A stretch of 64,000 nucleotides of DNA from NCBI GenBank assembly GCA_003599025.1, contig QZIL01000043.1, positions 2,630-66,629 of the forward strand, given 5' to 3'. The translations under genes and the position numbers were made by a program. Numbering within the stretch: position 1 is the first letter of the stretch; each line of letters opens with the position of its first letter. This document shows positions 1 to 56,550 of the stretch, piece by piece. Under the pieces are notes generated by a model. It ran no database searches. It saw only the letters and a list, made by a program, of their open reading frames with translations, and was not told the DNA's origin. Source of the stretch: Nitrospiraceae bacterium (GTDB lineage: Bacteria; Nitrospirota; Thermodesulfovibrionia; UBA6902).

Positions 1-109
1 TTTTGCAAAAGACAAGAGAAGTACTGGACGGCAAATAATTATGGTTCTTTCGCAAAAAAGCTGAAAACAAAAAAAGCTTCTTCTAAGGTAAAAAACATAG
101 CAACTCGGC

Positions 110-185
110 GTCATTCCGGTTTGTCCGGAATCCTCTTGCAACAATCTGATTTATTAAGTATAGATCCCAGACAAGCTGGAATGAC
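110..185. repeat. Compound hairpin repeat, GTCATTCC...GGAATGAC family (copy A)
   Basis: Sequence reads GTCATTCCGGtttgtCCGGAATCC - TTTATTAAG - GATCCCAGacaagCTGGAATGAC. It forms two stem-loops with inverted termini. Related copies lie at 12283, 18759, 49491 and 63372. Confidence 0.7.
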
Positions 186-411
186 ATTTCAAGAAAGTGT
201 ATCTATTGCATTTGACTATCAAAAGTCTTCAGCATAATACGAAAGAAGGTTAATTATAATTATCATGCCCTTCCCCAGAGCTTAGATTTATGTTTTAAAA
301 AGCAATATTAGTCCAACGCAGTAATATTCCTGATAATCGCATGATTAGTAATGTAAATATCCATATTGCATCTGTTTGATTATTTGACACAAATAAGTAT
401 AATAGTGGGCA

Positions 412-1398: not shown

Positions 1399-1429
1399 AC
1401 TCTAACAATTCAGTCTTCACTCAGACCGT

Positions 1430-3571: not shown

Positions 3572-3586
3572 GGAGGTCGCATCAAC

Positions 3587-4609
3587 ATGGCAGAACGTTC
3601 ATTCATTAAAGCATTCAAGGGTCTTTTGCCGATACTCAGGATAGCCAAAATCACGTTAATATGCCTTGTCGTGCCGTTGCTGTTTGCATCTTCTGTTATT
3701 TCGGGGAAAAACGTGCGGGGTCCGGCGTTCTCCGGTCCGGACAACCTCATGGAGATGCCGGCTGACTGGCAGGAAAGGACGGTAAAGCATGAGTCGGCAG
3801 ACGCTGACCTTGTGGTGACCCTCGACGGCCAGATGTATCACGCATGGGAACCGATCATTCAAAAATATGCTAAAGAAAACAGCCTTAAAATAGTCGTGAA
3901 CAACGGGACCTGCGGAGTAGCAGCCGGAGGGCTTACGCAGAAATCAATCGACATGGGGGTGTTCTGCTGCCCCCCTGACAGGACAGACAGGCTCCCTGGC
4001 GTTCGTTTCCATACACTCGGCATAGCAGCCATTGCACTGATTATTCATCCTGATAATCCGCACGACAATGTGACACTTGAGCAGGCACGTCAGTTGTTCG
4101 GAGGGGCACAGCGCAACTGGTCCGGCACAACCTTAAAAAAAGAGACTCTGGTGCTGCCCGTAGGCAGACTTCACTGCAAATTAAGGCCGGGACACTGGCG
4201 GTTACTGCTCGATAACAAAGAACTGTTCAGCCCTGACCTCTTTGAAGTGGGCGCCATGCCGGACATGATCGCCAAGGTAGCTGCCAATCCCGGCGCAATA
4301 GGCTATGAGACCTTATGGATGATGCGTTACTATGAGGACCGGGGCAGGACCAGGTTTCTGAAGATAAACGGATACAGTCCCGACGACCCTGCCAATGTAG
4401 TGTCCCTTAAATATCCCTTATACCGTGTCTACAGTTACGCTGTCTGGGAAGGCCGCAATCTCGAAAAGCCGCATGCCCGGAAACTTGGGGAATATCTGAT
4501 GCAGCAGGCTGAGCAGCTTGAGGCAAAATACAGCTTTATCCCTGCGTCCGCTTTAAGAAAGGCAGGCTGGAAATTCAGGGGCAATGAACTTACAGGAGAA
4601 CCTGAATAA
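3587..4609 (+). CDS. PstS-like (PBP_like_2) periplasmic binding protein
   Basis: 340-aa ORF with an N-terminal hydrophobic anchor. The motif VTLEQARQLFGG..RNWS is characteristic of the phosphate-binding-protein-like fold. Its 3' end overlaps the next kinase gene. Confidence 0.7.
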   Translation: MAERSFIKAFKGLLPILRIAKITLICLVVPLLFASSVISGKNVRGPAFSGPDNLMEMPADWQERTVKHESADADLVVTLDGQMYHAWEPIIQKYAKENSLKIVVNNGTCGVAAGGLTQKSIDMGVFCCPPDRTDRLPGVRFHTLGIAAIALIIHPDNPHDNVTLEQARQLFGGAQRNWSGTTLKKETLVLPVGRLHCKLRPGHWRLLLDNKELFSPDLFEVGAMPDMIAKVAANPGAIGYETLWMMRYYEDRGRTRFLKINGYSPDDPANVVSLKYPLYRVYSYAVWEGRNLEKPHARKLGEYLMQQAEQLEAKYSFIPASALRKAGWKFRGNELTGEPE

Positions 4610-6800
4610 GGAAATGAACACACTTCATGACCGGAACAGCAAGGCGGACACTGCCACCGGCACCACACCGGTCCGTGAGTTTTTGAACCGCGTCCCGCTT
4701 ACCCTGAAAATGGTCCTGATCACAACTCTTCTCGGTATCTGCCTGTGGGCTGTGATGGAGTATATACAGAGCGCCAGGCTGAAAAAGATATTTTACGTCC
4801 AGATGTTCGACAAAATTTCGGAGCAGTCCATGGAGTGGCGGATAAGTCTCGACCAGTACATAAGGTTCCATCATGAAACTGCAGAGATCATTGTTTCTCA
4901 AAAGGCATTCAGCGATTATGTAAACAGCAGGAGATGGAGCAGTGCCGATGAAGAGGTCAGGTATTATGCTCAACCTCCTGCATGGTTGCTGAGGCCCTCC
5001 ATATTACGATCACTTGTCCGTCCAAGATACGCCACGCTGCTTGACGCTGACGGAAGGGTCAGGGAGATATATTCGCGGCATGACGACAGGATTTCAGCAT
5101 CCGAACTGCTTCACCCGTCAGCGCTCTGGCTGTCAAAAAGCAGGGAGCAGAGCTTCGTAACGAAAATCGATAACCTGCATTATGTCATTACATCGGAACC
5201 ATTGTACGACCCTCACGGGAAATTACAGGCAACTGTGATGCTCGCTTCTCCCATTGACGAAGAGTTCCTTGTCTCGGCAATAGGCATTCTTCAGCCCGGC
5301 TATCTTATGGCGCTTGTCGATCATAAAGAAGACCCGACCGTCCTGATCAGTAACAATCATTCGGTATTGCCGCCGGGAACGCACATTCATGATCTCGGGG
5401 ACCGTTTTCTCGTCACAGGTCAGGACACATACAATTACGGAGCGGCTGAATATATGATAAATCTGGTCTCACTGATTTCACGTACAGAAGCTGATAAGTT
5501 GACCGACTCGGTGATATCGACCGGAAGATACCAGCGCAATATAATTGCTCCGGCATTTATCCTGACCTTCGCTGCTATTATGGTTTATATCACAAGGAGA
5601 ATAAGCAGGTTGAATAAGCGCATGTCCGATTTTTCGAGGCAGACCCTGGGTATGAAGACAGAGGAACTGCCAAAAGGGGACAAACTGTACCTGCTCGAAA
5701 AGAGATTTGAACGCCTCAAAGGGGAAGTGGCCGAAGCGCGTGAGATCATTAAGAAGCAGGCGGAAGAAAAAACAGTCAAAGAGTCCCATGAAAGGCTCCT
5801 TACAGTCCTGAACGGCCTTGAAGCGATTGTTTATGTCGCCGACATGCAAACACATGAACTGCTGTTCGCAAATAACTATACCCAGAAAATATTCGGAGAT
5901 ATAGAGGGCAGAATATGCTGGCAGACCATTCAGTCCGGGCAGTCAGGACCATGTGATTTCTGCTCAAATGAAAAACTGCTTACCCCTGCCGGTGAACCGT
6001 CAGGCGTTTACACCTGGGAATTCCAGAATACATTCAACGGCAGATGGTATTACATTCAGGACCGGGCCATCAAGTGGATTGACGGGCGGATTGTCAGAAT
6101 GGAAATAGCGACCGATATGACAGAGCGAAAGCAGTCTGAGAACCAGGTAAAAGAATCACTCTATGAGAAAGAGGTCCTGCTGAAGGAAATCCATCACAGG
6201 GTAAAGAACAACATGCAGGTCATTTCGAGCCTGCTTAATATCCAGTCCGGAAAGCTCAAAGGCAGGCCGGAAGCCGAGGTCTTCAATGAAAGCCGCAACC
6301 GAATAACAGCGATGGCCCTTGTCCACGAAAAACTCTACAGTTCGGACAGCCTCGCAAGAATTGACTTAAGCGACTATATAAAAAGCCTTGTGAACAGCCT
6401 GTTTGCATTTTACGGGAAAAGCCCGAGGAATATTTCTGTAACCGTGCATGCAGACAGCATCTTTCTCGGAATCGACACGGCCATACCATGCGGCCTGATA
6501 ATTAATGAACTGGTCTCAAATTCCATGAAATATGCATTCCCGGATGACAGGAACGGTGAAATATCCATTCGGATGGAGGACATTTCCTCCACTGCCCGGT
6601 GGGACTACGAACTTACGGTCAGTGATAACGGGACAGGAATCCCTGAAGATATGGACATAAGAGAAACTGCTTCTCTCGGACTTCAGCTTGTCACCAATCT
6701 TACAGAGCATCAATTGCAGGGCACTGTGGAATTGCTGAGAAACAGCGGCACTGAATTCCGTATTCACTTCATCGAGCCAAAATATAAAAACCGGGCATAA
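4584..6800 (+). CDS. Sensor histidine kinase: TM-large periplasmic domain-TM-coiled coil-PAS-HisKA_2-HATPase
   Basis: 738-aa ORF with two TM segments flanking a ~300-aa domain of unknown family. The PAS domain carries CWQTIQSGQSGPCDFC. H-box is [27 protein letters not shown]. An alternative start at 4614 (MNTLH) would remove the overlap with the upstream gene. Confidence 0.9.
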   Translation: MNLQENLNKEMNTLHDRNSKADTATGTTPVREFLNRVPLTLKMVLITTLLGICLWAVMEYIQSARLKKIFYVQMFDKISEQSMEWRISLDQYIRFHHETAEIIVSQKAFSDYVNSRRWSSADEEVRYYAQPPAWLLRPSILRSLVRPRYATLLDADGRVREIYSRHDDRISASELLHPSALWLSKSREQSFVTKIDNLHYVITSEPLYDPHGKLQATVMLASPIDEEFLVSAIGILQPGYLMALVDHKEDPTVLISNNHSVLPPGTHIHDLGDRFLVTGQDTYNYGAAEYMINLVSLISRTEADKLTDSVISTGRYQRNIIAPAFILTFAAIMVYITRRISRLNKRMSDFSRQTLGMKTEELPKGDKLYLLEKRFERLKGEVAEAREIIKKQAEEKTVKESHERLLTVLNGLEAIVYVADMQTHELLFANNYTQKIFGDIEGRICWQTIQSGQSGPCDFCSNEKLLTPAGEPSGVYTWEFQNTFNGRWYYIQDRAIKWIDGRIVRMEIATDMTERKQSENQVKESLYEKEVLLKEIHHRVKNNMQVISSLLNIQSGKLKGRPEAEVFNESRNRITAMALVHEKLYSSDSLARIDLSDYIKSLVNSLFAFYGKSPRNISVTVHADSIFLGIDTAIPCGLIINELVSNSMKYAFPDDRNGEISIRMEDISSTARWDYELTVSDNGTGIPEDMDIRETASLGLQLVTNLTEHQLQGTVELLRNSGTEFRIHFIEPKYKNRA

Positions 6801-6824
6801 CGTCATATTTTACTTTATGCCCGG
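6791..6824 (+). terminator. Hairpin overlapping the stop codon of the kinase gene (weak terminator candidate)
   Basis: CCGGGCATAA (6791-6800) pairs perfectly with TTATGCCCGG (6815-6824) around a 14-nt loop. No T-tract follows, so terminator function is uncertain. Confidence 0.3.
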
Positions 6825-6932
6825 CAGTGTAATAACTTATACTTGGTAAACCTATAAAAACAAGACAGGTGCTTAGAACCTGCTAAAAGAAGTTCAATCG
6901 TTAAATTAAGGGAGTTCCGGATTCTTGGGCAT

Positions 6933-8435
6933 ATGGGACCACTCGGTAAGATATTGGTCAATCAGATAGATGTAGTATTCTTTATCTACGGACTCGCCTT
7001 CATAATAATGGGGCTTGCTATCCTGCTCCAGCCCAAAAAGGACAGCGAGCATAAGATCGCTGACATCTTCTGGCTCCTGGCATTGTTCGGAATCACTCAT
7101 GGTGTAAATGAACTCCTTGATATGTGGGCCATTATAAGGGGCCGTCACGATGTACTGGATGCTTTCCGCTGGTTATGTCTTGTTATATCATATCTCTTTC
7201 TTTTCGAGTTCGGCAGGCGGTTTTTCTCCCTGAATACAGCAACGGCGCCTGCCTGGCAGAGAAAGGCAGCCGGCCTTTTCGGATGGTGGTCGCTTCCTAT
7301 TATAACTCTTGCGATTTTTGCCGGTGCATACATCTCTGATGATTTCTGGAAGACAGGGAGCATCCTGGCCAGATATTCACTGGGCCTTCCGGGCGGGCTA
7401 ATGATAGGCTTAGGCTTTCTGTTTCAGTACAGACATGAAAAAGAAGTTTTAGGAAAGCTGGGGGTGAAGTTATATTTCATGTCTGCAGGAGGAGCGTTCG
7501 TGACTTACGGGATACTGGGTGGGCTGATCGTCCCAAAGGCTGCCTTTTTCCCTGCAAACTTACTCAATACGGAATCCTTTATCGCAACAGCAGGGATGCC
7601 TGTCCAGGTACTGCGGGCAGTATGCGCCCTTGCAGCTGCCTGGTCTGTAAGCGGAATCCTGAAGATATTTAACTGGGAGATGAGAGAAAGGCTGCAGAAA
7701 CGCTCTGACAGGCTTCAGGCTGTAAATAAGGAACTACAGGTTGAGATTGCTGAACGCAGACTCGCACAGGAGCAGCTTAACGCTTCACTCAGGGAAAAAG
7801 AGGTCCTGCTTAAAGAAATATATCACAGGACCAAGAACAACATGCAGGTCATTACCAGTTTGCTGAATCTCCAGTCCACCCAGATTGACGATCCCCGCTA
7901 CGTTACGCTGTTTGACGACAGCCGCAACAGGATAGCCTCAATGGCCCTTGTTCATGAAAAACTCTACCGCTCGAAAAACCTTTCGAACATCGATTTTAAG
8001 GACTATGTATCAAGTCTCGCAAACGGCCTTCTCACCTTCTACGGCAAAAGCGCCAGAAGCGTCTCATTTACCGTAAATGCCGGAGGGATCGTTCTGGGCA
8101 TCGACACGGTCATTCCCTGCGGCCTTATCATCAACGAACTAGTTTCAAACTCACTCAAGCACGCATTCCCTGAAGGCAGAGGCGGAAGGATATTGATAGA
8201 ACTTAATAATACATATGCTGGTGAGAATCGGAACAGTGAATATGAGCTGACTGTAGGTGATGACGGTATCGGACTTTCAAAAGATATTGATATCAGGAAT
8301 ACAAAATCCCTTGGATTACAGCTTGTCACCAATCTCACCATGCATCAGCTCAGGGGAAGCATTGAATTACGCAGGAATGAAGGTACTGTTTTTAATATCC
8401 GTTTCAGGGAACTCAAATATAATGACCGGTTATAA
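6933..8435 (+). CDS. Membrane-integral sensor histidine kinase (multi-TM N-terminal domain + HisKA_2 + HATPase)
   Basis: 500-aa ORF. About 250 aa of repeated hydrophobic helices are followed by a coiled coil, then the H-box EKEVLLKEIYHRTKNNMQVITSLLNLQ and ATPase motifs NELVSNSLKHAF and DDGIGL. Confidence 0.88.
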   Translation: MGPLGKILVNQIDVVFFIYGLAFIIMGLAILLQPKKDSEHKIADIFWLLALFGITHGVNELLDMWAIIRGRHDVLDAFRWLCLVISYLFLFEFGRRFFSLNTATAPAWQRKAAGLFGWWSLPIITLAIFAGAYISDDFWKTGSILARYSLGLPGGLMIGLGFLFQYRHEKEVLGKLGVKLYFMSAGGAFVTYGILGGLIVPKAAFFPANLLNTESFIATAGMPVQVLRAVCALAAAWSVSGILKIFNWEMRERLQKRSDRLQAVNKELQVEIAERRLAQEQLNASLREKEVLLKEIYHRTKNNMQVITSLLNLQSTQIDDPRYVTLFDDSRNRIASMALVHEKLYRSKNLSNIDFKDYVSSLANGLLTFYGKSARSVSFTVNAGGIVLGIDTVIPCGLIINELVSNSLKHAFPEGRGGRILIELNNTYAGENRNSEYELTVGDDGIGLSKDIDIRNTKSLGLQLVTNLTMHQLRGSIELRRNEGTVFNIRFRELKYNDRL

Positions 8436-8462
8436 TACACGCCATATTAAAGGAGAACCTCA

Positions 8463-10118
8463 GTGGAAAAAGCAAAAATATTAATCGTAGAAGATGAAGC
8501 CATTATCGCAAAGGACCTGCAGTGGAGACTGGAAGGGATGGGATATGATGCACCTTTGATAGTGGCTACAGGAAAAGAGGCCGTTGATAAAGCACATGCC
8601 ATCAGGCCTGATCTTATTTTAATGGACATCATGCTGCTCGGGCCAATGGACGGCATTGAGGCCTCCAAACAAATCCGCTCAGAGATCGACATACCGATCA
8701 TATATCTCACTGCATACGCAGACGAAGAAGTGCTGGAAAGGGCCAAGATAACCGGGCCCTTCGGATATCTCATCAAACCCATTGGAGACAGGGAGCTGCA
8801 CAGCAATATCGAAATAACCCTTCACAAGCACAGAGTAGACAAAAAATTACGTGAGAATGAAAAATGGCTTTTCACTGTGCTCACCAGTATTGGCGATGCA
8901 GTCATAAGCACAGATACAAACGGACACATTCTGTTTATGAACCCGGCAGCTGAAGTCCTTACGGGCTGGAAAGAAGAGGAGGTCTCAGGCAGGACGCTCG
9001 AAGATATCTTTAATATCATAAACGAAAAAACAGGAGATAAGGTCGAAAGCCCTGTTCAGAAAGTGCTGAGACAGGGCACAGTGGTGGGTCTTGCAAATAA
9101 TACGATATTGATTACCAGAAACGGGACAAGGATCCCGATCGATGACAGCGGCTCTCCGATAAAAGATGAAAAAGGCAATATACTGGGAGTGGTCATGGTT
9201 TTTTCCGATATCAGCACAAGGAGAAGGGCGGAAACACTGCTTATGCAGTCCAAGAAGGATTGGGAAGACACCTTTAATACAATTACGGACATGATCACGA
9301 TCCACGACAAGGATTTCAATATCATCAGGGCCAACAGGGCGGCTGAAAAGATACTTGGGCTGCCCCTGCTTAACACATCAAAGGCAGAGTGTTTCAGATA
9401 TTACCATGGAACAGCCAATCCGCCCCGGAGCTGCCCGAGCTGTGAGTGCCTTAAAACGGGTGAACCGTCAACATTTGAAATTTACGAACCTCATCTGAAC
9501 ATGTACCTTGAACTGAGGGCCATGCCGAGGTTTGACAGCAACAATAATCTTATCGGGTTGATACATGTTGCCAGGGACATTAGTGAAAGGAAAAAGATAG
9601 AGGAGGAGATAAAGAGGGCAAAGGTTGAATGGGAGATGACATTTGACAGCGCGAATGAATTTATAGTGCTCGTTGACAGGGGACTGAATATATCGCGGTG
9701 CAATAAAAGCTTTGCCAGGTTCGTAAAAAAATCCATCGACGAAATCATCGGAAAGAAGTGTTCCCTGTTTTTTCCCTGTGATGCTGTGAGGAACGATGAA
9801 TCAAAATCTGCCTCGAACATCGAGATTAAAACCGATACAGGCCACTGGCTCTACCTGAGTTCGTATTCAATCCTTGATGAGAAGGGCGAATTCCTCCACA
9901 CGATTATCATGGCAACAGATATAACTGATATGAAAAATACCCAGCAGAGACTCCTGAAGTCTGAGGATGAACTCATATCCAGAGTCAAGGAGCTTGAAGA
10001 TTTCTATGAAATGGCTGTTGGCAGGGAGCTGAAGATGAAGGAACTTAAAAGCGAGATCTCGAAGCTGAAAAAGGTGCTCGCAAAGGAAAAGGAATCAACA
10101 GAAAAAATTGATTCTTAA
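8463..10118 (+). CDS. Response regulator: REC + three PAS domains + C-terminal coiled coil, no enzymatic or DNA-binding output
   Basis: 551-aa ORF with a GTG start. REC motifs are ILIVEDE, DLILMDIMLLGPMDG and GYLIKP. PAS-like segments include one with CFRYYHGTANPPRSCPSCEC. The protein ends in ELEDFYEMAVGRELKMKELKSEISKLKK. Confidence 0.9.
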   Translation: MEKAKILIVEDEAIIAKDLQWRLEGMGYDAPLIVATGKEAVDKAHAIRPDLILMDIMLLGPMDGIEASKQIRSEIDIPIIYLTAYADEEVLERAKITGPFGYLIKPIGDRELHSNIEITLHKHRVDKKLRENEKWLFTVLTSIGDAVISTDTNGHILFMNPAAEVLTGWKEEEVSGRTLEDIFNIINEKTGDKVESPVQKVLRQGTVVGLANNTILITRNGTRIPIDDSGSPIKDEKGNILGVVMVFSDISTRRRAETLLMQSKKDWEDTFNTITDMITIHDKDFNIIRANRAAEKILGLPLLNTSKAECFRYYHGTANPPRSCPSCECLKTGEPSTFEIYEPHLNMYLELRAMPRFDSNNNLIGLIHVARDISERKKIEEEIKRAKVEWEMTFDSANEFIVLVDRGLNISRCNKSFARFVKKSIDEIIGKKCSLFFPCDAVRNDESKSASNIEIKTDTGHWLYLSSYSILDEKGEFLHTIIMATDITDMKNTQQRLLKSEDELISRVKELEDFYEMAVGRELKMKELKSEISKLKKVLAKEKESTEKIDS

Positions 10119-10163
10119 ATCAACTGAATTGCAGTCAGTAATTACTCTTAACTGGAAGGAACA

Positions 10164-12227
10164 ATGATCAAGGTCCTCCTTACACTATTGCTAACTTTGC
10201 TTACCTGTATCTCAAACGCTTCTGCTTTTGACACCGCAGCGCTCCAAACAGAGACTGCAGAGGAGCTTCTCTTCTTCTTTGAGGAGGAGGAGCTTGTGAT
10301 CGCAACAAGGAGCACGATCCCTGTCAGAAAGGCTCCGGCAATAGCCACGGTCATCACCGCCCAGGAAATAAGGAACATGGGAGCAAGGAACACTCTTGAT
10401 GTGCTAAAGACAGTCCCCGGCTTTGGCGTGTCCACCACCGAATTCAACCTGAAGATGCTTGAGGTCCGGGGGATACTGACACAGCTGTCCGAAAAGGTCC
10501 TCTTCATGATCGACAGCCACCGTGTAAACCTCCATTGGAACGGAAGCGCGCTTTATCAGATCGTCAATACCATCCCTGTAGAGAACATAAAAAGGATTGA
10601 GGTCATCAGGGGGCCTGGTTCAGTACTGTACGGCGCAAACGCCTTTGTCGCGGTAATAAATATTGTCACAAAAGAAGCTGAAGATATAAAGGGCATTCAA
10701 CTGACTGCGGGAGGAGGAAGTTTTGATACAGAGCATTACAACCTTCTGTACGGGCATAACGGGCAGAAATTAAAAATCATGGGCAGTCTCGACTATTACG
10801 ATACGGACGGGGCCAGGATCAGAATTGAGGAAGATGCGCTCACCGGAACCCCTTTTACAAAAACCCCCGGAACAACCCGTCTCGGAGAGGAAAAGACCGA
10901 CCTGTTTTTAAAGGCGTCATACGGCGACCTGTCATTTCGCGGGCACTATCAGCAGGAACGGAATGAACAGTATATCGGAATGGGTTATGCGCTCACGGAT
11001 GAAAGTTATCATAAGCAGACCAGCTACTGGCTTGAACTGGACTACAACCTCAATATCACCAATGACCTCTCTTCACATATAAAAATACATCTGGACAATT
11101 TCAGGCAGGAACCCCATGTCAAAATCATGCCGGATGGTTTTGCCGGCATGTTCCCCAGCGGGATGATCGGGCAGCCCTTTCTCAGGAACAGGAGTATGGG
11201 GGGTGAACTTCAGGTGGATTATGACATATGGGACAATAATCACTTGACAGCCGGAGCCTACTACGAAAAGGTAAAGCAGTATGACGTAAAGCATTATACC
11301 AACTTCGATCCCCGTGTCTTTCCTCCTGTTCCCGTAGACCTCGGCCCTGTTCAGAATGTGTCATCGTGGGCGAACTGGAACCAGGACACCAAAAGAGAGA
11401 TCTGGGCGTTTTATGTTCAGGATGAGTGGGAAATCATTGATAACTTAAATCTCACTGCAGGCCTGCGGCATGACCACTACAGCGATTTCGGAGATACGAC
11501 GAATCCGAGGGTCGGTATCGTATGGGGCTTTTGGGAGAAGGCTGATTTAAAGCTTCTGTACGGCAAGGCGTTCAGGGCCCCGAATTTTGTTGAGCTATAC
11601 AACCGCAATAATCCTGTCAATGTCGGCAATACTGACTTGAAGCCCGAAATGATCACTACGTACGAGGCAAGCATCGGTTTTAAACCCGCAAGGCCATTTA
11701 CGGTTGATCTTAATTATTTCTACAGTGATATTCAGGACCTGATAATCTGGAACTCTCAATCACCTGCGGTCCACGTGAATGCAGGGGAAGCCAAAGTCAA
11801 CGGCATCGAACTTGTGATGACCGGGAAGTACACGTCTGAAAATTACTGGAAACTGTCCTACACATATCAGGACCCTGAAGACTCTGCCACCGGAGAGAGA
11901 TTGCCATATGTTCCTTTACACCGGGCTTCCGCAAATATAAATTACGGCCTTACTAAATATCTGAACGTGCATACCGATGTGTTATGGACAGGCGAACGGT
12001 CGAGACCGGAGGGTGACACGAGAGACCCTGTGGCTTCTTATACTACAGTTGATCTAGCATTAATATTAAAGAACTTTTACAGGACCCTTGAGATACAGGG
12101 TACAGTCCATAATCTCTTTGATGAGGATTATGAAGACCCCGATACATCAGGTGATAAACAGTACATTACCGGTGATTTCCCGAGAGAAGGGATTTCCGGG
12201 ATGATAAGTGTCAGTTATAAATTTTGA
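10164..12227 (+). CDS. TonB-dependent outer-membrane receptor (paralogue 1)
   Basis: 687-aa ORF with a signal peptide. Plug motifs are VIATRSTIPVRKAPAIATVITAQEIRNMGARN and IEVIRGPGSVLYGANAF. The barrel has alternating beta-strands and the C-terminal residue is aromatic (..SYKF). Confidence 0.93.
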   Translation: MIKVLLTLLLTLLTCISNASAFDTAALQTETAEELLFFFEEEELVIATRSTIPVRKAPAIATVITAQEIRNMGARNTLDVLKTVPGFGVSTTEFNLKMLEVRGILTQLSEKVLFMIDSHRVNLHWNGSALYQIVNTIPVENIKRIEVIRGPGSVLYGANAFVAVINIVTKEAEDIKGIQLTAGGGSFDTEHYNLLYGHNGQKLKIMGSLDYYDTDGARIRIEEDALTGTPFTKTPGTTRLGEEKTDLFLKASYGDLSFRGHYQQERNEQYIGMGYALTDESYHKQTSYWLELDYNLNITNDLSSHIKIHLDNFRQEPHVKIMPDGFAGMFPSGMIGQPFLRNRSMGGELQVDYDIWDNNHLTAGAYYEKVKQYDVKHYTNFDPRVFPPVPVDLGPVQNVSSWANWNQDTKREIWAFYVQDEWEIIDNLNLTAGLRHDHYSDFGDTTNPRVGIVWGFWEKADLKLLYGKAFRAPNFVELYNRNNPVNVGNTDLKPEMITTYEASIGFKPARPFTVDLNYFYSDIQDLIIWNSQSPAVHVNAGEAKVNGIELVMTGKYTSENYWKLSYTYQDPEDSATGERLPYVPLHRASANINYGLTKYLNVHTDVLWTGERSRPEGDTRDPVASYTTVDLALILKNFYRTLEIQGTVHNLFDEDYEDPDTSGDKQYITGDFPREGISGMISVSYKF

Positions 12228-12282
12228 TAAACAGTATATAACGTACGCAGACTACTACTCATGGTTCATAATACTTTTTGCC

Positions 12283-12352
12283 GTCATTCCTGGGAAAACA
12301 GGAATCCAGCTTTATTAAGAAGTTACTGGATACCCGCTTTCACGGGTATGAC
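12283..12352. repeat. Compound hairpin repeat, GTCATTCC family (copy B)
   Basis: Sequence reads GTCATTCCTGGgaaaaCAGGAATCC - TTTATTAAG - GGATACCCGctttcaCGGGTATGAC. The two-hairpin layout and central TTTATTAAG match copy A. Confidence 0.7.
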
Positions 12353-12393
12353 ATCATTCTTACACATTAAGGCATACTGCAACAGCCTGACAA

Positions 12394-14427
12394 ATGGAGA
12401 ACAGAATGAATAAATTCCTATTTACTATCTTAATCTTATTGATTACCTGTTCAGCTTCCTTTGCCCTTGAGTTTGCGGAACTCCGGACCGAAACAGCCGA
12501 AGAGCTTCTTTTTTTCTACGAGCAGGAAGAGCTTGTTATTGCTACAAGGCAGTCAATTCCCGTAAGCAAGGCCCCCGCCATAGCTACAGTCATTACAGAC
12601 AGGGAGATACGGAACATGGGGGCAAGGACCCTGTTTGATATTCTAAAGAGGGTTCCGGGCATAGGGGTCTCCATAGCTAACGTTGCAGTGTATCACACCA
12701 TTGAAGTAAGAGGGGTAAAGTCCCTTAACAGCGAAAAAGTACTCATCATGGTTGACGGCCACAGGATTAATGAAGAGATGCATGGCTCTTCGGCTTTTTT
12801 CTTCGGGTATATGTCGGTTGACAGCATAAAAAGAGTCGAAATAATCAGGGGGCCCGGCTCTGCTCTTTATGGAGCCAACGCCTTTTTAGCTGTAATCAAT
12901 ATTATCACCAAAGAGGCAGCAGACATAAAAGGGCTTCAGGTCACTGCAGGAACTGGAAGCTTTGATACACAGCACTACAACATTCTGTTCGGATATGACG
13001 CCGAGAAGTTAAAGATATCAGGCTTTATTGACTACCTTGATACAAACGGACCTTCTTCATTTATAGAGCAGGATGCTGCAGGTGAATCAGGTGATACGCT
13101 TGAGTGGCAGGAAAGACCGGACATGGGACTTTCCATTTCTTATGACGACCTTACTCTGAGAGTGCGGTATCTCAGGAATGAAATGGGACCAATTATCGGT
13201 GCTGGTTCCGCCCTTAATGACGAATCGGTCCAGGACTGGGGCCAGTACTATGCCGATCTCTCCTATAACAAGGGCATAACTGAATATCTCGATATAACAA
13301 CAAGGCTGTATTACGACCAGGTCATTTTAAACCCATACTGGGAACTGTTCTCCGAAGGCTTCAGAGGGATTTATCCCGATGGACTGCTGGGCAACCCTGA
13401 ATCAAAGCACAGGAAACTGGGCGGTGAGATTACAACAGATTACTCTTTGTCCGATCACCTGATCACGGCAGGGGTCATGTATGAACATGTTAAGCAGTAT
13501 GATGTGCATTCTTTCGGTAATTTTCACCCTATAACTTTTGCTCCTCAGGACTACGAGGAGACAGCCAACTTTAACAGGAATGTGAAGAGAGAGATCTTTG
13601 GACTCTATGTTCAGGATGTCTGGGATGTTATGGACACTATGTCATTGACAGCCGGAATTCGGTATGACCATTATTCCGATTTTGGGGAGACCACAAACCC
13701 GAGGGCAGGACTTGTATGGGAATTTATAGAGAATACGTCTCTAAAGATGCTGTATGGCAGTGCCTTCATAGCCCCTAATTTCTCCCAGCTCTACCACGCT
13801 AACAACCCATCACTCATCGGGAACCCGGAACTTGATCCCGAGACAATCCATACTTACGAGATTGGCATTGAACACCGTTTCCTTGAAAAATATACTGCAA
13901 GACTAAACTACTTCTACAACGAAATATCAGACATAATTGTAAGCGGCGAGAAACCTTCTCCAACAGAGCCAGCGCAATACAAAAACAGGGATGAGGCCGA
14001 AATAGACGGCATTGAAGCGGAACTGCACTTTGATTTCGGCCATGATAATTACGGTCATTTGAATTACAGTTATCAGCATCCGGTTGATGATAATACAGGA
14101 CAGAGGCTGCCCGATGTCCCGGCCCACAGGGCGAATGCGGAGATCAATTACGCGCCGTGGAAATATCTGAACACAAATGTGAGCGTATCCTGGGTCGGGA
14201 AAAGATACAGAGACGACAGGGACACGAGGGATGATCTGCCCGCTGAAACACTGGTCGACCTGACGCTGATCGCGAAGAACTTTTATAGGACACTGCAAAT
14301 CAGGGGATCGGTCTACAATCTCTTTGATGAAAATTACCTCGACCCCAATCCATATCCGGGACAGGTGCCCAATGACTATCCGGCAAACAAACGGATGTTT
14401 ATGTTTGAGGCAAGGTATACATTTTAA
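12394..14427 (+). CDS. TonB-dependent outer-membrane receptor (paralogue 2)
   Basis: 677-aa ORF. The plug is nearly identical to paralogue 1 (ETAEELLFFYEQEELVIATRQSIPVSKAPAIATVIT, IEIIRGPGSALYGANAF). It ends ..ARYTF. Confidence 0.93.
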   Translation: MENRMNKFLFTILILLITCSASFALEFAELRTETAEELLFFYEQEELVIATRQSIPVSKAPAIATVITDREIRNMGARTLFDILKRVPGIGVSIANVAVYHTIEVRGVKSLNSEKVLIMVDGHRINEEMHGSSAFFFGYMSVDSIKRVEIIRGPGSALYGANAFLAVINIITKEAADIKGLQVTAGTGSFDTQHYNILFGYDAEKLKISGFIDYLDTNGPSSFIEQDAAGESGDTLEWQERPDMGLSISYDDLTLRVRYLRNEMGPIIGAGSALNDESVQDWGQYYADLSYNKGITEYLDITTRLYYDQVILNPYWELFSEGFRGIYPDGLLGNPESKHRKLGGEITTDYSLSDHLITAGVMYEHVKQYDVHSFGNFHPITFAPQDYEETANFNRNVKREIFGLYVQDVWDVMDTMSLTAGIRYDHYSDFGETTNPRAGLVWEFIENTSLKMLYGSAFIAPNFSQLYHANNPSLIGNPELDPETIHTYEIGIEHRFLEKYTARLNYFYNEISDIIVSGEKPSPTEPAQYKNRDEAEIDGIEAELHFDFGHDNYGHLNYSYQHPVDDNTGQRLPDVPAHRANAEINYAPWKYLNTNVSVSWVGKRYRDDRDTRDDLPAETLVDLTLIAKNFYRTLQIRGSVYNLFDENYLDPNPYPGQVPNDYPANKRMFMFEARYTF

Positions 14428-14462
14428 ATGTTAAAATACGGAATCAGGTTATTAGTGAACAT

Positions 14463-15365
14463 ATGAGGGGACCCGTGCTGAAGCATAATTATAAATTATT
14501 TATTATTCTGACTGCTCTCATGGCGGTCCCTCTGTCTGTCTGGACTGTGGAGTCGGCTGACCTGCTAATTATAGGTGACACAAAGCTCAAGCCGGTGTCG
14601 GACTTAATCGCGGGGATAGAAGAGGACTTATCATATTCAGCAACGGTCAGGTCTCCGGCAGATGTGAAGGACAATTTTGAAGGTATTATTCAAAGTGAAG
14701 GCGCAAAGGCTGTGGTGGCACTTGGTCAGGACGCTGTCAATGTCTCGCTGTCGCTGCCCGAATCAATTCCGGTCATTTACGGTCTTATTATTAATCCCCC
14801 TGAAACTTCTAGAAGAAACATGACAGGTGTTTATATGGCAACACCTGTTAGTGAATATATATCTTTTATAAATAAGTATTTCCCTGCCATTAAACGGATC
14901 GGAATAATATGTGAGCCCAGAACCAGGGACCTTGTGTGCCAGGGGGCGGTCCCGGCAAATGCTGTGTTTTACTATGCGACAAATCCATATGAATTCATCT
15001 CCGCCGTAAGCGGAATGCGAAACAATGTAGATGCGCTGCTGCTGCTTCCGGAGAAAAACCTCCTCTCCCAGACCGCTCTTGAGAAGGCGTATCTCTATTC
15101 CTTCAGGGACAACATCCCTGTCATCGGCATTTCTGAAAAATACGTTAAAACCGGCTCCCTCTTTTCTCTCGGTTTCGACGCTGCTGACATGGAAAGACAG
15201 CTCGCAAATCTCATTGTAAAGGTGCTTACTCGAGGGAAAGCAGCAGGCATGCCACAATCTGCTCCTGAAAAATTCACCCTGTATATAAACAGAAAAACAG
15301 CGGAAGCCACAGGTGTTCATGTCCCGCCTGTACTTCTTAATATGGCTGAAAGGGTATATCCATAA
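14463..15365 (+). CDS. Periplasmic solute-binding protein, ABC_sub_bind-like, with no cognate permease or ATPase
   Basis: 300-aa ORF with a signal peptide. Motifs are RNMTGVY and the C-terminal [18 protein letters not shown]. Its stop overlaps the start of the next kinase by 1 nt (TAATG). Confidence 0.75.
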
Positions 15366-17308
15366 TGGCGTTTCTTGCAGGCACGATAAACAAAATCATA
15401 AGCGAGATACTGCCGAAGCGTTTTAATACCATAAGAATAAAACTGCTTGTTGTGGCCGTTGCCGGGCTTGTGCTTGCCTCAATTATCTACACAATTGATT
15501 CTGTCAGGTCTGAACAGGCGATCATGAGAAAAGAGATCGACAAAAAAGTGGAGGTTGTGACCAGGCTTGCCACAAATTTAGGGGAACTTCCGCTCCTGTC
15601 AAGAAATCCGGAGCTTATGCAAAGGACCCTCGCATCCCTTAAGAATGTTGCAGATGTATCATATGCTGCGTTCTACGACTTTGATATGAATCTGCTCGAA
15701 CAAACCGGCGATACCCCCCTCCCCGTCTGCGATCATCCCCGCAAACCGGACATGTCGTTTGTGGAAGGACCGCACTATATCGATCTTTGTGCGCCTGTAT
15801 TTAGTATCAGGGCGGGTGAGGACATCGGTATCTTTCGCGATGATGCTGCCATGGACACAAGAGATCAGGTCGGATGGATACGGATCGGGTTCTCCAAGGC
15901 TTATCTGAATGAGGCCCAGCAGTCGATCATCTTAAGAGGGGTCCTGATAGCGCTTATTTTTACCTTCCTGAGCAGTCTGCTCGTATACAAATTGACTGCA
16001 GCAGCTACAAAACCCCTTACCCTGCTGTCAGGCGCGGTACAGAGCGTCAGGGACGGCAGATATCCCGAGTTGTCTGTCTCCTCCGGAGATGAAGTGGGCA
16101 TACTCACTTCCGAGTTTAACAGGATGAGCAGGTCAATAAGCGAAAGAGAGGAGATGCTGGTAACACGAGCCAGACTGTCTTCCTTTGTCTCTGACATCGG
16201 TTTTGTTCTGACTGAAGGCGCTCCACTCCGGACAACACTTCAGCACTGCACAGAAATTATTGTTACTCAGATTGACTCAGCGCTGGTGCGCATATGGACA
16301 TTCGACCTTGAAGAAAATGCTTTCGTTCTGCAGGCCAGCTCCGGCATATATACTCCGGCAGACAGCCCGGTCAGCCGACTTCCTGCTGATGGGTCCACAC
16401 TCTGGACCGCCGCTGAGCAACTACAGCCTCAATTTGCCAACTCGGTCCATATACTTAATGCCGCGGAACGGGAATGGGCAGATAAAGCAGGGATCGTCTC
16501 TTTTGCGATTTTTCCCCTGGCAATAGAATCCAGGCTCGTCGGCATGCTCGAAATATATTCAGGAAGGCAGCTGCTTAATGAAACATTTACAACACTGGAT
16601 ACTGTAGCAGACCAGATTGCCATAGGCATACAGCGAAAGCTTGCGGAGCAGCACATCGAGGCCTCACTCGTGGAAAAAGAAGTCCTGCTCAGGGAGATAC
16701 ACCACAGGGTCAAAAACAACATGCAGGTTATATCGAGTCTGCTGAACTTTCAGACCCGTTATGTTAATGATAAACAGTTCATCACTATCCTTAATGAAAG
16801 CCAGAACCGCATTAAATCCATGGCCCTTATACACGAAAAGCTGTACCGGTCCAGTGACCTGGCAAATGTAGACTTCAATGATTACATCACAAACCTCTCA
16901 CATGATCTGTTTAAATTTTACGGAGTGGATACGGACAGGATCACCCTTAAGCTCGACCTGCAAAGGATTGCCTTTGAAATCGATACCGCCATCCCCTGCG
17001 GCCTGCTGGTAAATGAACTCCTTACCAATTCCCTGAAGCATGCGTTCCCGGATGGAAGAAGGGGGGAAATACATATAATCCTCAGGGAGAAGAACGCTGA
17101 TAAAGGCAGCCATTATGAAATGACTGTAAGTGACAACGGCATCGGAATACCTGCAGATCTTGATATCACAAAAACAAAATCATTAGGTTTACAGCTGATC
17201 CACACTTTATCAGAACATCAGCTCCAGGGCCGACTGGACCTGGACAGATCAAACGGGACTACATTTCATATCACCTTCAGGAAGCTAAAGTACAAAAAAA
17301 GGATTTAA
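15365..17308 (+). CDS. Sensor histidine kinase: TM-periplasmic domain-TM-HAMP-GAF-HisKA_2-HATPase
   Basis: 647-aa ORF. HAMP motif is [23 protein letters not shown]-like block reads VRIWTFD...[21 protein letters not shown]-box is [27 protein letters not shown]. ATPase motifs are [12 protein letters not shown] and DNGIGIP. Confidence 0.92.
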
Positions 17309-17320
17309 TCAAGTCGTTAA

Positions 17321-17443
17321 AAGGATTCAAGGATTCAAGGAGTCGAGATAAAATCCGGTTTTTAGTTTTCGGACTATAGATCAGAAAACAGCGAACAACT
17401 TTATTATCACTTGACCCCTTGGACCCTCGAATCCTTGGACCCT
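17321..17443. repeat. Periodic-arm hairpin element (8-mer arrays in inverted orientation)
   Basis: The left arm is AAGGATTC AAGGATTC AAGGAGTC. The reverse complement of the right arm is AGGGTCC AAGGATTC GAGGGTCC AAGGGGTC. The arms flank a ~60-nt centre. The element lies in the convergent gap between the kinase gene and ftsZ. Confidence 0.65.
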
Positions 17444-17506
17444 ATACTGAAATGATCAATAAAGTCTTAACTTGCTTATCCACTCTATTCCCGGAAAAAC
17501 TCTCTT

Positions 17507-18655
17507 TTACGTTATCCTGATTTCCTTATCGTCTGTTACGCCGTTTTTACGCATGAAAGTGGGCACATCAAGATAGTCCTCTCCGCCCTCGACCATTATC
17601 TCTTTTGACAGGAGCCGGCCTGAGCCCTTCAGTGTGTTAACGTCCCGCGAGGGTCTCCATTTATCATAAGAGGGCATTACGGCACGCGGTTTTTCCTCAA
17701 ACCCGGTGGCTATAACCGTAACAATAATCCTGTCGTCCATATCAGGGTCGATGACCGAGCCAAAGATGATTTCAGCGTCCTCATCAGCAGCCTCCCTTAC
17801 CAGGCTGGCAGCCTCATTTACCTCATGGAAAGATAAGGAGGAGCCTCCAGTGATGTTTATCAATACGCCTTTAGCACCATCAATGGAGGTCTCCTCCAGC
17901 AGGGGACTCTTTATCGCCATCTTCGCTGCGTTCACGGCCCTGTTTTCACCATCAGCATTGCCAATCCCCATAAGGGCCCTTCCGCTGTCCAGTAATATTG
18001 TCTTTATATCTGCAAAGTCCTGGTTTATCAGTCCGGGTACGAGTATAAGGTCGGATATGCCTTTCACCGCCTGCCTCAGTACATCATTGGCCAGGTTCAG
18101 GGCCTGCAGCCACGGCGTATGCTTTTCGGTAATGTCCAGAAGCCTGTTATTATGGATGATGATTATTGAATCAACATATTTTCTTAATTCCTTGATACCC
18201 TGCTCGGCGTTTCTCGCCCGTTTGTTGCCTTCGAAAAGGAACGGCCGCGTTACAACCGCGGTTGTGAGAATGCCCATCTGTTTTGCGGTCTCGGCAACAA
18301 CCGGGGCAGCCCCGGTCCCTGTTCCACCGCCCATACCTGCGGTTATAAATACCATATCAGCACCACCTATGGCCTGTTCGATCAAAGTCCTGTCATCAAG
18401 CGCTGCCTGTCTGCCAACTTCAGGGTTTGCACCTGCGCCGAGCCCTTTAGTCAATGTATTGCCGATCTGTATGCACTGGTTCGCGAGGGAGGATTCAAGA
18501 GCCTGAGCGTCCGTATTGATTGCAATAAATTCAACACCCGACAGGCTTGACGCAATCATGCTGTTTACCGCGTTGCTGCCCCCTCCACCAACTCCGACAA
18601 TCTTGATTTTTGCGGTTACCCTGTTCTGAATTTCTTCAAGATCAAAAATTCTCAT
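17507..18655 (-). CDS. ftsZ: Cell division GTPase FtsZ
   Basis: 382 aa. Tubulin signature [13 protein letters not shown] is present, with N-terminal [17 protein letters not shown]. It is the last gene of the dcw cluster. Confidence 0.98.
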
Positions 18656-37515: not shown

Positions 37516-37522
37516 CAGACGC

Positions 37523-37570
37523 ATCCTGACTACTTCCGGCAGGCTCGATACAGTCAGGATTTTTCCTTTT
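37523..37570 (+). terminator. Rho-independent terminator after xerD
   Basis: ATCCTGACT ... AGTCAGGAT forms a 9-bp stem, followed by TTTTTCCTTTT. Confidence 0.7.
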
Positions 37571-37609
37571 ATTAAATTTATAAAGTTATTAACTCCCTTC
37601 AAATAAAAC

Positions 37610-37638
37610 TTGTCAACGACGCTTATCAAGGCTATAAT
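37610..37638 (+). promoter_or_regulatory. Sigma70-type promoter upstream of the Lon-like protease gene
   Basis: TTGTCA - 17 nt - TATAAT, about 110 nt upstream of the ATG at 37749. Confidence 0.55.
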
Positions 37639-37748
37639 GTCAACATCAATTTACAATTAACAGTATTGCATTTGCTTTCAGCATCACATCACAAGAATTA
37701 TTGACTCTTAACATATTTAATATTCTTGATGAACCGGGAGGTTAGCGT

Positions 37749-53831: not shown

Positions 53832-53859
53832 TTGGAACAGTTGCAACCGTTCCAACGAC

Positions 53860-56537: not shown

Positions 56538-56550
56538 TGACAGTACAAAA

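Follow-up and report, generated by a model that had tools for sequence, protein, structure and literature searches.

Analysing a 64-kb stretch of DNA (hereafter the window), we identified a gene module in which two TonB-dependent receptors (TBDRs), an orphan periplasmic binding protein of family PF04392 (SBP) and a sensor histidine kinase succeed one another (Table 1), and which recurs in dozens of anaerobic bacteria. We regard it as reasonably probable that this module operates as a receptor-gated, binding-protein-mediated two-component sensor, most likely allowing the cell to detect a molecule that has to be pumped through the outer membrane beforehand. Kinases stimulated by an SBP are established, the SBP genes in question being as a rule neighbours of signalling genes (PMC8050422), but our literature search retrieved no description of a pairing between a PF04392 SBP and this kinase family. 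On the proposed reading, the module combines the logic of LuxP/LuxQ with that of PfeA/PfeS.

Table 1. Features of the module and of the neighbouring sensory genes (window coordinates).
Feature	Position	Strand	Description
TonB-dependent receptor 1	10164-12227	+	687 aa; Pfam Plug E 9e-20, barrel E 3e-55
TonB-dependent receptor 2, paralogue of receptor 1	12394-14427	+	677 aa; Pfam Plug + barrel
PF04392 (ABC_sub_bind) orphan periplasmic binding protein (SBP)	14463-15365	+	300 aa, Sec signal peptide
TAATG stop/start overlap, SBP/kinase	15363-15367	+	sequence read directly
Sensor histidine kinase	15365-17308	+	647 aa; Pfam; AF2
Kinase periplasmic sensor domain, ~residues 46-187	15500-15925	+	divergent sCache_4 (BarA/GacS-type)
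Second pair: PF04392 SBP	412-1398	+	Pfam E 2e-38
Second pair: dCache_1-HAMP-PAS-HisKA_2 kinase	1430-3571	+	Pfam
Third pair: PstS/PBP_like_2-like binding protein	3587-4609	+	Pfam E 2.6e-4 (below cutoff); NCBIfam PstS family E 5e-10
Third pair: HisKA_2 kinase, 500-aa N-terminus unannotated	4584-6800	+	overlaps 3587-4609 gene
Membrane HisKA_2 kinase	6933-8435	+	Pfam
REC-PAS-PAS-PAS protein	8463-10118	+	Pfam

The gene content proposed in an earlier note on this DNA was borne out. The two receptors, already read there as paralogues, share 49% identity from end to end, and both consist of Plug and TonB_dep_Rec_b-barrel domains (Pfam, E 1e-54 to 1e-55). Receptor 1 displays a signal peptide, a plug, a complete barrel and a C-terminal Phe, together with a conserved N-terminal motif (ELLFFFEEEELVIATR) that includes a TonB-box-like stretch and is common to the module TBDRs of other phyla. 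The protein following the receptors, which the note had assigned to the ABC_sub_bind type, matches PF04392 with 77 bits (E 1.7e-21; cutoff 25.9), and all of its close homologues (115/115) are PF04392 proteins; a GTG at 14475 constitutes an alternative start, and a 96%-identical homologue has 296 aa. The kinase combines HAMP, GAF_2, HisKA_2 (E 1e-30) and HATPase_c domains, arranged as TM1, periplasmic single-Cache domain, TM2, HAMP, GAF, HisKA_2 and HATPase_c. The sequence likewise confirmed the reported TAATG junction with this HAMP-GAF-HisKA_2 kinase: in CCATAATGGCG, the TAA stop of the SBP (15363-15365) shares its A with the kinase ATG (15365-15367), an overlap that translationally couples the two genes. 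The receptor genes lie upstream of the SBP in the same orientation, with gaps of 35-166 bp, and thus look co-transcribed with the pair rather than organised as a separate target operon.

The absence of ABC permease, ATPase, TonB and ExbBD genes, which the note had claimed for the island, extends to the whole window: no ABC permease, importer ATPase, TonB, ExbB or ExbD gene was found anywhere in the 64 kb, and its sole ABC_tran protein (47587-49452) is of the soluble ABC-F type. Directly downstream of the kinase, on the opposite strand, lies the dcw cluster, from ftsZ (17507-18655) to mraZ. The 17-kb island comprises four kinases and three binding proteins. Its two further binding-protein-plus-kinase pairs, in which the note had seen the same logic repeated, are both real, but the binding protein of the third pair gave a weak PstS/PBP_like_2 match and was rejected as an ABC_sub_bind member. 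The gene after a homologue of the second-pair SBP encodes a dCache_1 receptor, whose output is of the HisKA_2, HisKA-hybrid or MCP type, and the third pair also occurs in L001, the locus carrying the closest relative of the module SBP on a long contig (74% identity). Homologues of the membrane HisKA_2 kinase and of the REC-PAS-PAS-PAS protein are located before the module in L001 and L003, and after the dCache pair in L048; the latter protein is the probable phospho-acceptor of the HisKA_2 kinases of the island.

Recurrence was surveyed in 35 species-level genomes found through the SBP (Nitrospirota, Geobacterales and some Proteobacteria) and in 39 related loci. The co-occurrence of TBDR, ABC_sub_bind protein and kinase, which the earlier note had put forward as a check, was strongly positive. 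The SBP directly precedes a kinase with a homologous periplasmic sensor in ~31 of the 35 genomes, an overlap of -1 or -4 is kept in 23/35, and a related TBDR belongs to the cluster in 28/35, while none of the 39 related loci has an ABC ATPase or permease adjoining the module; the ABC ATPase matches of these loci lie 3.4-7.6 kb away, with unrelated or opposite-strand genes in between. Among the seven TBDR-negative genomes, three have less than 1.6 kb of upstream sequence, and four informative ones (L018, L027, L037 and L040) carry the SBP-kinase pair with no TBDR within reach; in L029, the only TBDR is located 5.6 kb downstream. TBDRs number 0-3 per locus, placed before, between or after the pair, and their density falls from 1.05 per 10 kb at distances of up to 5 kb from the pair to 0.21 beyond. 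L001 has one TBDR only, broken into two ORFs, so that a dedicated receptor is not indispensable. By contrast with the conserved sensor, the cytoplasmic parts of the kinases vary, from HAMP-GAF-HisKA_2 in Nitrospirota to HisKA-HATPase-REC hybrids in Geobacterales and PocR/PAS hybrids. A reverse look-up started from five relatives of the kinase sensor domain, and recovered the module from each of the three distant ones whose contigs reach upstream, as TBDR-SBP-HK (P0123), RR-TBDR-(divergent SBP)-HK (P0167; SBP by hhalign, 97%, E 1e-10) and RR-SBP-HK-TBDR (P0173); P0165 displayed SBP-HK on a short contig, and the contig of P0166 was too short to show the upstream gene.

In the AF2 model (pLDDT 87.9), the SBP folds as a type-I PBP, its nearest structures being 3LKV, 3LFT and CD0873, and is predicted to be complete, with both lobes and a cleft. 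Two motifs seen in two of three solved amino-acid-binding relatives (NVTG[VL]SD and [AS]AT, in 3LKV and 3LFT) are replaced by TGVYM and ISE, which are invariant in the module SBP family, and this makes a free aromatic amino acid an improbable ligand. In the model of kinase residues 1-265 (pLDDT 89.8), the sensor fold matches the sensor domains of WalK, CitA, KinD and PctA. The periplasmic domain of the window protein has no Pfam match of its own and weakly matches NF053592 and BarA, and 12 of 61 sensor-domain relatives match PF09984 (sCache_4). We propose this domain as the docking site of the SBP. Their divergences are indeed closely linked, the mirror-tree correlation reaching r=0.94 between the SBP and the periplasmic domain, vs 0.72 with the cytoplasmic part and 0.69 with the TBDR, bearing in mind that simple co-inheritance also yields such correlations. 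The partial correlation between SBP and periplasmic domain given the cytoplasmic part is 0.87, and the reverse 0.00; SBP divergence tracks the periplasmic domain of the kinase and not its cytoplasmic part. TBDR and SBP divergences are loosely coupled (partial r=0.13).

Co-occurrence, coupling and sensor-specific co-variation thus support the interpretation of the earlier note, from which the following scenario can be drawn. One or both TBDRs would bring a scarce or bulky ligand over the outer membrane, using energy from a TonB presumably encoded elsewhere in the genome. The orphan SBP would capture this ligand in the periplasm, its two lobes closing, and would dock, liganded or unliganded, on the single-Cache domain of the kinase, although this domain could itself be the ligand binder. 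The signal would then pass via TM2 and HAMP to the GAF, HisKA_2 and HATPase domains, changing autophosphorylation, and the phosphoryl group would probably reach a response regulator, for which the REC-PAS protein encoded five kb upstream is the candidate and through which the putative target genes would be regulated. The duplicated TBDR-SBP units that share one kinase in L034, with two SBPs 61% identical, fit a hand-off from receptor to binding protein.

Among the other readings, a protein-protein relay devoid of ligand hand-off, as in YfiB-YfiR-YfiN or FecA-FecR, appears unlikely, yet is the least so. Receptor occupancy would alter the periplasmic face of the TBDR and thereby sequester or release the SBP, which would repress or activate the kinase from the periplasm with no need to bind the small molecule itself. 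The N-terminus of the kinase weakly matches NF053592 ('sensor histidine kinase, YfiR-like protein-associated'), and all module TBDRs match NF053590 (TOL_0244 family), with scores as high as 317 bits (L039, full-length match) and a best E-value of 3e-106 in the set, which together suggests a sister cassette with a YfiR-like protein in the place of the SBP. These scores nevertheless lie far below the cutoffs (129-317 vs 645 bits for NF053590, including receptor 1, and 34 vs 194 for NF053592), and it is from their names and adjacent accession numbers that we infer that both models describe one cassette. A further match of both the family profile and the model of the SBP is a single-lobe 'short SBP' (5Z6V, 6K1W; TM 0.76 on the second lobe), which is unable to clamp a ligand between two lobes, but the protein encoded here is predicted to be complete. 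An acidic/hydrophobic motif (ELLxFxEExDL), conserved in module TBDRs immediately ahead of the TonB box, could be a docking site; against such a relay, these receptors have no N-terminal signalling (STN) extension, and some genomes maintain the pair in the absence of a TBDR.

Slightly less probable is a dual use of the SBP, feeding an ABC or other importer encoded elsewhere while being co-expressed with, or also signalling to, the kinase, as known for ChvE, GltB and the chitin-binding protein. Only 64 kb of the genome were seen, MFS transporter genes adjoin the SBP in some related clusters, and PF04392 proteins of solved structure serve ABC systems for the uptake of aromatic amino acids (PMC6816091, PMC10443332), but the motifs of 3LKV and 3LFT are substituted in the module family, and coupling to the kinase is conserved instead of adjoining ABC genes; furthermore, transporter-feeding SBPs typically stand beside transporter genes, and kinase-stimulating ones beside signalling genes (PMC8050422). 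That the receptors are outputs and not inputs, the cue arriving by other routes and the SBP and kinase only regulating the neighbouring TBDR genes, is a little more doubtful again. Regulators commonly adjoin the TBDR genes they control, PfeS/PfeR also inducing pfeA (PMC8001512), and the variable number, variable position and loosely coupled divergence of the TBDRs agree with such a role; it is however compatible with the receptor-gated sensor, the PfeA/PfeS receptor being both input and output, and the apparent co-transcription in the window and the functional pairing argued by L034 speak against outputs alone. Finally, some adjacency is expected in an island so rich in kinases and binding proteins, but the idea that sensory and transport genes with no relation to one another came together here by chance is hardly credible, and conservation already refutes it: gene order, overlap and protein subfamilies recur in Nitrospirota, Desulfobacterota and Proteobacteria, and an arrangement maintained in several phyla goes far beyond what chance would produce.

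The module resembles LuxP-LuxQ and TorT-TorS in that a transporter-less SBP gene adjoins a membrane kinase, with presumed docking on the periplasmic domain and SBP genes beside signalling genes (PMC8050422, Table 1). The families nevertheless differ, with PF04392 instead of Peripla_BP_4 or Peripla_BP_1, and a single sCache_4-like sensor instead of the dCache-like LuxQ and HBM-like TorS domains, and neither system has dedicated TonB-dependent receptors. PF04392 is also missing from the SBP families tabulated in a review as known receptor stimulators (PMC8050422). With PfeA/PirA-PfeS/PfeR of Pseudomonas aeruginosa, it shares clustered receptor and two-component genes and a TBDR import preceding detection by a periplasm-facing histidine kinase (PMC8001512). 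PfeS, however, is thought to sense ferri-enterobactin directly, with no binding protein, and its kinase and sensor families are different. In Bacteroides, SusC-like transporters associated with hybrid two-component systems (e.g. BT1754) similarly have TBDR-imported material sensed by a periplasmic PBP fold linked to a histidine kinase, but this PBP domain is fused to the kinase, whereas the module SBP is separate and translationally coupled; the phyla also differ, and the module comprises neither SusD nor glycan-degrading genes.

YfiB-YfiR-YfiN (TpbB) of Pseudomonas aeruginosa likewise has three tiers, in which a protein of the outer membrane and a soluble regulator in the periplasm are combined with a sensor of the inner membrane that carries HAMP and a PAS/Cache-like periplasmic domain (PMC4655355). 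YfiB is nonetheless an OmpA-like lipoprotein and not a TBDR, YfiR a small single-domain protein unlike a two-lobe SBP, and YfiN a diguanylate cyclase and not a kinase, with signalling by sequestration in contrast to the proposed ligand delivery. The putative NF053590/NF053592 cassette appears to have the same architecture of TBDR, periplasmic protein and kinase, its partner being YfiR-like instead of a full two-lobe PF04392 SBP. In FecA-FecR-FecI cell-surface signalling, a TonB-dependent receptor also heads a trans-envelope chain, but it is the N-terminal signalling domain of FecA that contacts an anti-sigma factor, whereas the module TBDRs are devoid of this extension and their inner-membrane partner is a histidine kinase.

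The 10164-17308 module associates two TonB-dependent receptors (TBDR), a periplasmic binding protein (SBP) and a histidine kinase in an arrangement that probably supports receptor-gated, binding-protein-mediated sensing, the best-supported reading of our analysis. The earlier note had described two paralogous receptors followed by an ABC_sub_bind protein and a HAMP-GAF-HisKA_2 kinase, and Pfam recovered these four open reading frames as claimed, with 49% identity end to end between the receptors. Also correctly read was the overlap of the SBP stop with the kinase start, TAA and ATG having one base in common (CCATAATGGCG).

Coordinates of the features of the window and of related loci (L handles, loci of other genomes)
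Feature	Position	Strand	Description
PF04392 protein and kinase	412-3571	+	Kinase dCache_1-HAMP-PAS-HisKA_2
PstS-like binding protein and kinase	3587-6800	+	Overlapping HisKA_2 kinase
Membrane kinase	6933-8435	+	500 aa; HisKA_2
REC-PAS protein	8463-10118	+	REC-PAS-PAS-PAS
TBDR1	10164-12227	+	687 aa; Plug and TonB-dependent-receptor barrel (Pfam E 1e-54 to 1e-55 for both receptors)
Intergenic element	12283-12352	+	70 nt; GTCATTCCTGGGAAAACAGGAATCCAG...ACTGGATACCCGCTTTCACGGGTATGAC
TBDR2	12394-14427	+	677 aa; Plug and barrel
SBP	14463-15365	+	300 aa; PF04392 (ABC_sub_bind), Pfam E 1.7e-21, 77.2 bits vs cutoff 25.9
Kinase	15365-17308	+	647 aa; HAMP, GAF, HisKA_2, HATPase_c (Pfam)
Short direct repeats	17310-17460		AAGGATTCAAGGATTCAAGGAGTCGAG; CCTTGGACCCTCGAATCCTTGGACCC; kinase-ftsZ intergenic region
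dcw cluster	17507 (ftsZ) to 36424 (mraZ)	-	Convergent with the kinase
Recombinase and protease	36643-40196		XerC/D-type tyrosine recombinase; LonC-like (AAA_32/LonB-type) protease
Second sensory region	49817-63251
PAS-HisKA kinase	within 49817-63251		SSF-transporter-fused; CbrA/CrbS-like
REC-sigma54 AAA+ protein	within 49817-63251		355 aa; ends at AAA+ lid, no HTH domain detected
NtrC-type regulator	within 49817-63251		Full
Nucleotidyltransferase proteins (n=2)	within 49817-63251		cNMP-CBS-DUF294
Exonuclease	within 49817-63251		RNase T-like
Symporter pair	within 49817-63251		DUF4212 and SSF; ActP-like
L001 split TBDR	7822-9841		Two overlapping ORFs (Plug; barrel)
L012 small-molecule genes	5166-7110
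L017 small-molecule genes	7934-9832
L005 small-molecule genes	4923-7586
L014 small-molecule genes	705-1472
L016 small-molecule genes	7017-9915
L028 small-molecule genes	8184-9872

Both receptors displayed complete domains (plug profile 2-105/107, barrel profile 19-38 to 436/436; Pfam), a TonB-box-like stretch (...EELVIATR...) only about 20-25 residues after the signal peptide, and C-termini (...YKF and ...YTF) with a terminal Phe. The FecA-type N-terminal signalling (STN) extension was absent from both, with no STN match in Pfam. The module TBDRs of the related set had in common an ELLxFxEExDL motif preceding the TonB box. The gaps measured 166 bp between the receptors and 35 bp between TBDR2 and the SBP. 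The former hosts an element whose fold is a closed junction of three hairpins (-25.9 kcal/mol, z -3.5, no shuffle folding equally well), found as a single copy within the window, matching no Rfam family, and not conserved in the related locus L003, where the TBDR genes almost abut; we take it to resemble REP-like intergenic hairpin elements.

The SBP carried an N-terminal hydrophobic signal sequence, read from the translation, with GTG 14475 as a possible alternative start used by a 96% identical homologue, and PF04392 was recovered in 115/115 of its close homologues. Its AF2 model (pLDDT 87.9) adopted the two-lobe type-I periplasmic binding protein fold, best matched in Foldseek by 3LKV, 3LFT, 6HNI and 6HNJ (E 2e-15 to 4e-12). 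Its structural relatives include VC_1101 (3LKV, Phe), SP1069 (3LFT, Trp) and CD0873 (Tyr) (PMC6816091). Since the NVTG[VL]SD and [AS]AT motifs of 3LKV/3LFT are replaced in the SBP subfamily by TGVYM and ISE, both invariant there, comparison of these motifs suggests that a free aromatic amino acid is an unlikely ligand.

In the kinase, HisKA_2 (residues 444-519, E 1.2e-30) and HATPase_c (547-639, E 3e-12) followed an N-terminal region whose AF2 model (residues 1-265, pLDDT 89.8) comprised TM1, a long helix, a five-stranded single Cache, TM2 and HAMP (helix 23-79, helix 82-93, five strands within 98-177, helix 179-229), so that the two TM helices flank one PDC/Cache fold, with fold matches to the sensor domains of WalK, CitA, KinD and PctA. 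The isolated periplasmic domain had no Pfam match, not even at E<=10, and none to sCache_4 (PF09984, BarA/GacS-type). An exhaustive HMMER search for sensor-domain relatives yielded 61 sequences, 12 of which matched PF09984, and the distant module kinases of loci L044 and L046 aligned to BarA from residue ~7, indicating that the window domain is a divergent relative of sCache_4 and not a member of the profile. Membership in the NCBIfam TOL_0244/YfiR-associated cassette (NF053590, NF053592) was rejected because every score fell far under its cutoff: 129 bits for TBDR1 and 124 for TBDR2 against 645 (NF053590), and 34 for the kinase N-terminus against 194 (NF053592). All 30 module TBDRs matched NF053590, which was the top-scoring family for some, always under the cutoff, the best score among related loci being 317 bits (L039).

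From 412 to 17308, every gene is sensory and lies on the + strand, including the two other binding-protein and kinase pairs (412/1430 and 3587/4584) noticed earlier, the 3587 protein being PstS-like. The 412 and 14463 SBPs shared 24% identity and belonged to different PF04392 subfamilies. Each homologue of the former (L048, L049, L050) preceded a dCache_1-HAMP receptor, whose output varied (HisKA_2 kinase, HisKA hybrid kinase or chemoreceptor), indicating that a second PF04392 subfamily also accompanies a receptor sensor domain, not a transporter; in L003, a 412-subfamily SBP instead directly preceded the two TBDRs. The one close relative inspected also retained the PstS-like pair, and the 6933-8435 and 8463-10118 genes stayed together in L001, L003 and L048. 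The membrane domain at the N-terminus of the 6933-8435 kinase weakly resembled the ethylene-receptor ETR1_N (E 0.002-0.005, under cutoff), and the 8463-10118 protein ended in a C-terminal coiled coil only, with no recognised output domain.

Promoter and terminator scans of 1-17600 did not outperform shuffled sequences and delimited no operon, and an Rfam scan of 1-18000 revealed no riboswitch to name the TBDR ligand. Downstream minus-strand genes of 265-498 aa, considered as a missing ABC system, were identified as ftsQ, ddl, murB and murC, and small ORFs at 45-47 kb, considered as ExbB/ExbD/TonB, as SecG, DUF5661, a PF0610-like zinc-ribbon protein and KhpA. Short direct repeats occupied the kinase-ftsZ intergenic region, the recombinase and protease genes lay just past mraZ, where the dcw cluster ends, and a second sensory region was found farther downstream.

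Scanning one genome per species, with hit-guided ORF calling and phmmer seeds from the window, we recovered 35 loci from Nitrospirota, Geobacterales, Desulfoprunum, one Dongiaceae MAG and Gammaproteobacteria MAGs. Geobacter sp. OR-1 and Pelotalea chapellei DSM 13688, both cultured, are among the Geobacterales represented. In about 31/35 loci, the gene immediately after the SBP encoded a kinase whose N-terminal sensor was homologous, the two genes overlapping by 1 or 4 bases in 23/35, and a TBDR was present within the cluster in 28/35, three of the seven negatives having less than 1.6 kb of upstream sequence. Within 5 kb of the SBP-kinase pair, TBDR genes reached five times the density found farther out. 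They numbered from 0 to 3 per locus, and in one genome a lone kinase was preceded by two tandem TBDR-SBP units. The triplet persisted in a relative with a 50%-identical SBP (two TBDRs and an additional binding protein), in a 42%-identical 'Deltaproteobacteria' MAG (HisKA-HATPase-REC hybrid kinase), and in the closest relative on a long contig (L001, 74%-identical SBP), whose sole module TBDR is split into two ORFs, either as a frameshifted pseudogene or by assembly error. Reverse look-ups from five distant sensor-domain relatives of the kinase retrieved TBDR-SBP-HK, RR-TBDR-296aa-HK and RR-SBP-HK-TBDR arrangements (HK, histidine kinase; RR, response regulator) in three cases, the unannotated 296-aa protein being a divergent member of the SBP family (hhalign 97%, E 1e-10); the short contig of the fourth carried SBP-HK with no TBDR within view, and the fifth contig was too short for the upstream gene to show. 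These conservation data exclude a chance clustering of unrelated genes. The co-occurrence analysis, suggested in the earlier note, supports its interpretation of an outer-membrane-to-cytoplasm relay, whose mechanism we infer.

Over the 24 loci with all three parts, SBP distances correlated with those of the kinase periplasmic domain (r=0.94) more than with the cytoplasmic part (0.72) or the TBDR (0.69). Given the cytoplasmic part, the partial correlation between the SBP and the periplasmic domain was 0.87, a value compatible with physical co-evolution and tight co-inheritance alike; given the periplasmic domain, that between the SBP and the cytoplasmic part was 0.00. Cytoplasmic modules were repeatedly swapped while sensor domain and SBP remained together, which, with this co-variation, designates the periplasmic domain (about residues 46-187) as the best candidate partner of the SBP.

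In the proposed mechanism, a TBDR would import a ligand, the orphan SBP would capture it, and the SBP-ligand complex would dock on the kinase Cache domain and act on it, with the REC-PAS protein, which accompanies HisKA_2 kinases in L001, L003 and L048, as putative phospho-acceptor. Transfer of the signal by a YfiBNR/FecA-like protein relay draws on the weak matches to the NCBIfam models of a TBDR/YfiR-like/kinase cassette and on the similarity of the second SBP lobe to single-lobe 'short SBPs'; we regard it as unlikely. Still less likely is a dual-use SBP that also serves a distant importer. The absence of ABC permease, importer ATPase, TonB and ExbBD genes, noticed earlier for the island, holds for the entire 64-kb window, whose sole ABC_tran protein is of the soluble ABC-F type. 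None of 39 related loci has an ABC permease or ATPase as neighbour of the SBP, and only three ABC ATPase matches occur in them, 3.4-7.6 kb away (two among the 35 loci). The SBP gene is adjacent to, and co-inherited with, a kinase without transporter genes, as in SBP-dependent two-component sensors. The TBDR is only loosely coupled to the SBP (partial r=0.13); we consider it quite improbable, slightly more so than the two preceding alternatives, that the receptors are regulatory targets only.

Beyond receptor-gated sensing, the module could tentatively be viewed as an ancient, widespread 'import-to-sense' device whose TBDRs mainly admit a signalling molecule and not a nutrient, a rather doubtful extension. 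Several related clusters, the window not among them, carry small-molecule genes between or beside TBDR and SBP, of two types: radical SAM with an MFS transporter, found with a 'AENITVVTAKEIEDMNAH' TBDR subtype, and a TPP-dependent acetolactate-synthase-like enzyme, joined in L016 by a KAS III/FabH-like enzyme. These genes may hint at a self-made ligand, and the ligand could thus be a self-made or community-made metabolite, for example a metallophore or an autoinducer. Its re-entry via the TBDR would then be read by the SBP-sCache kinase, giving Nitrospirota and Geobacterales a circuit for quorum or chelator sensing gated at the outer membrane, and the YfiR-like single-lobe regulators with their TBDR/kinase cassette would represent reduced descendants of the PF04392 SBP module.

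SBP-stimulated kinases are thought to be common and few are characterised, and outside the PfeA/PfeS siderophore and Bacteroides glycan systems, TBDRs are seldom discussed as the point of entry to a two-component pathway. The module offers a concrete, conserved three-gene unit testable in cultured Geobacterales, and accounts for many 'ABC transporter substrate-binding protein' annotations lacking a transporter. It also suggests that a partner protein is what BarA/GacS-type sCache_4 domains may recognise, the signal of this kinase class being a long-standing gap. Bacteroides SusC receptors, with hybrid kinases bearing a fused PBP sensor, constitute another precedent beside PfeA/PirA-PfeS.

Literature searches on PF04392, sCache_4, YfiR-like proteins with TonB, and TBDR with SBP and kinase returned no description of the module, and among curated entries the closest are the NF053590 and NF053592 models, whose cutoffs the window proteins do not reach. 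A 2021 review of SBP-stimulated receptors lists neither PF04392 nor an sCache_4-like sensor and never mentions TonB (PMC8050422). FecA-type transducers possess an STN extension, unlike the module TBDRs, and TrpX-type uptake systems encode their PF04392 SBP together with the ABC permease and ATPase it serves, whereas the window SBP has neither within the 64 kb and scored 55 bits with the NCBIfam TrpX model against a cutoff of 390. We classify the module as a probable case of two-component sensing that depends on an SBP and is gated by TBDRs, in an undescribed family pairing. Its SBP-kinase half resembles LuxP/LuxQ and TorT/TorS, its receptor-kinase half finds an experimental precedent in PfeA/PirA-PfeS, where kinase activation requires import (PMC8001512), and its three-tier layout is common to YfiB-YfiR-YfiN (PMC4655355).
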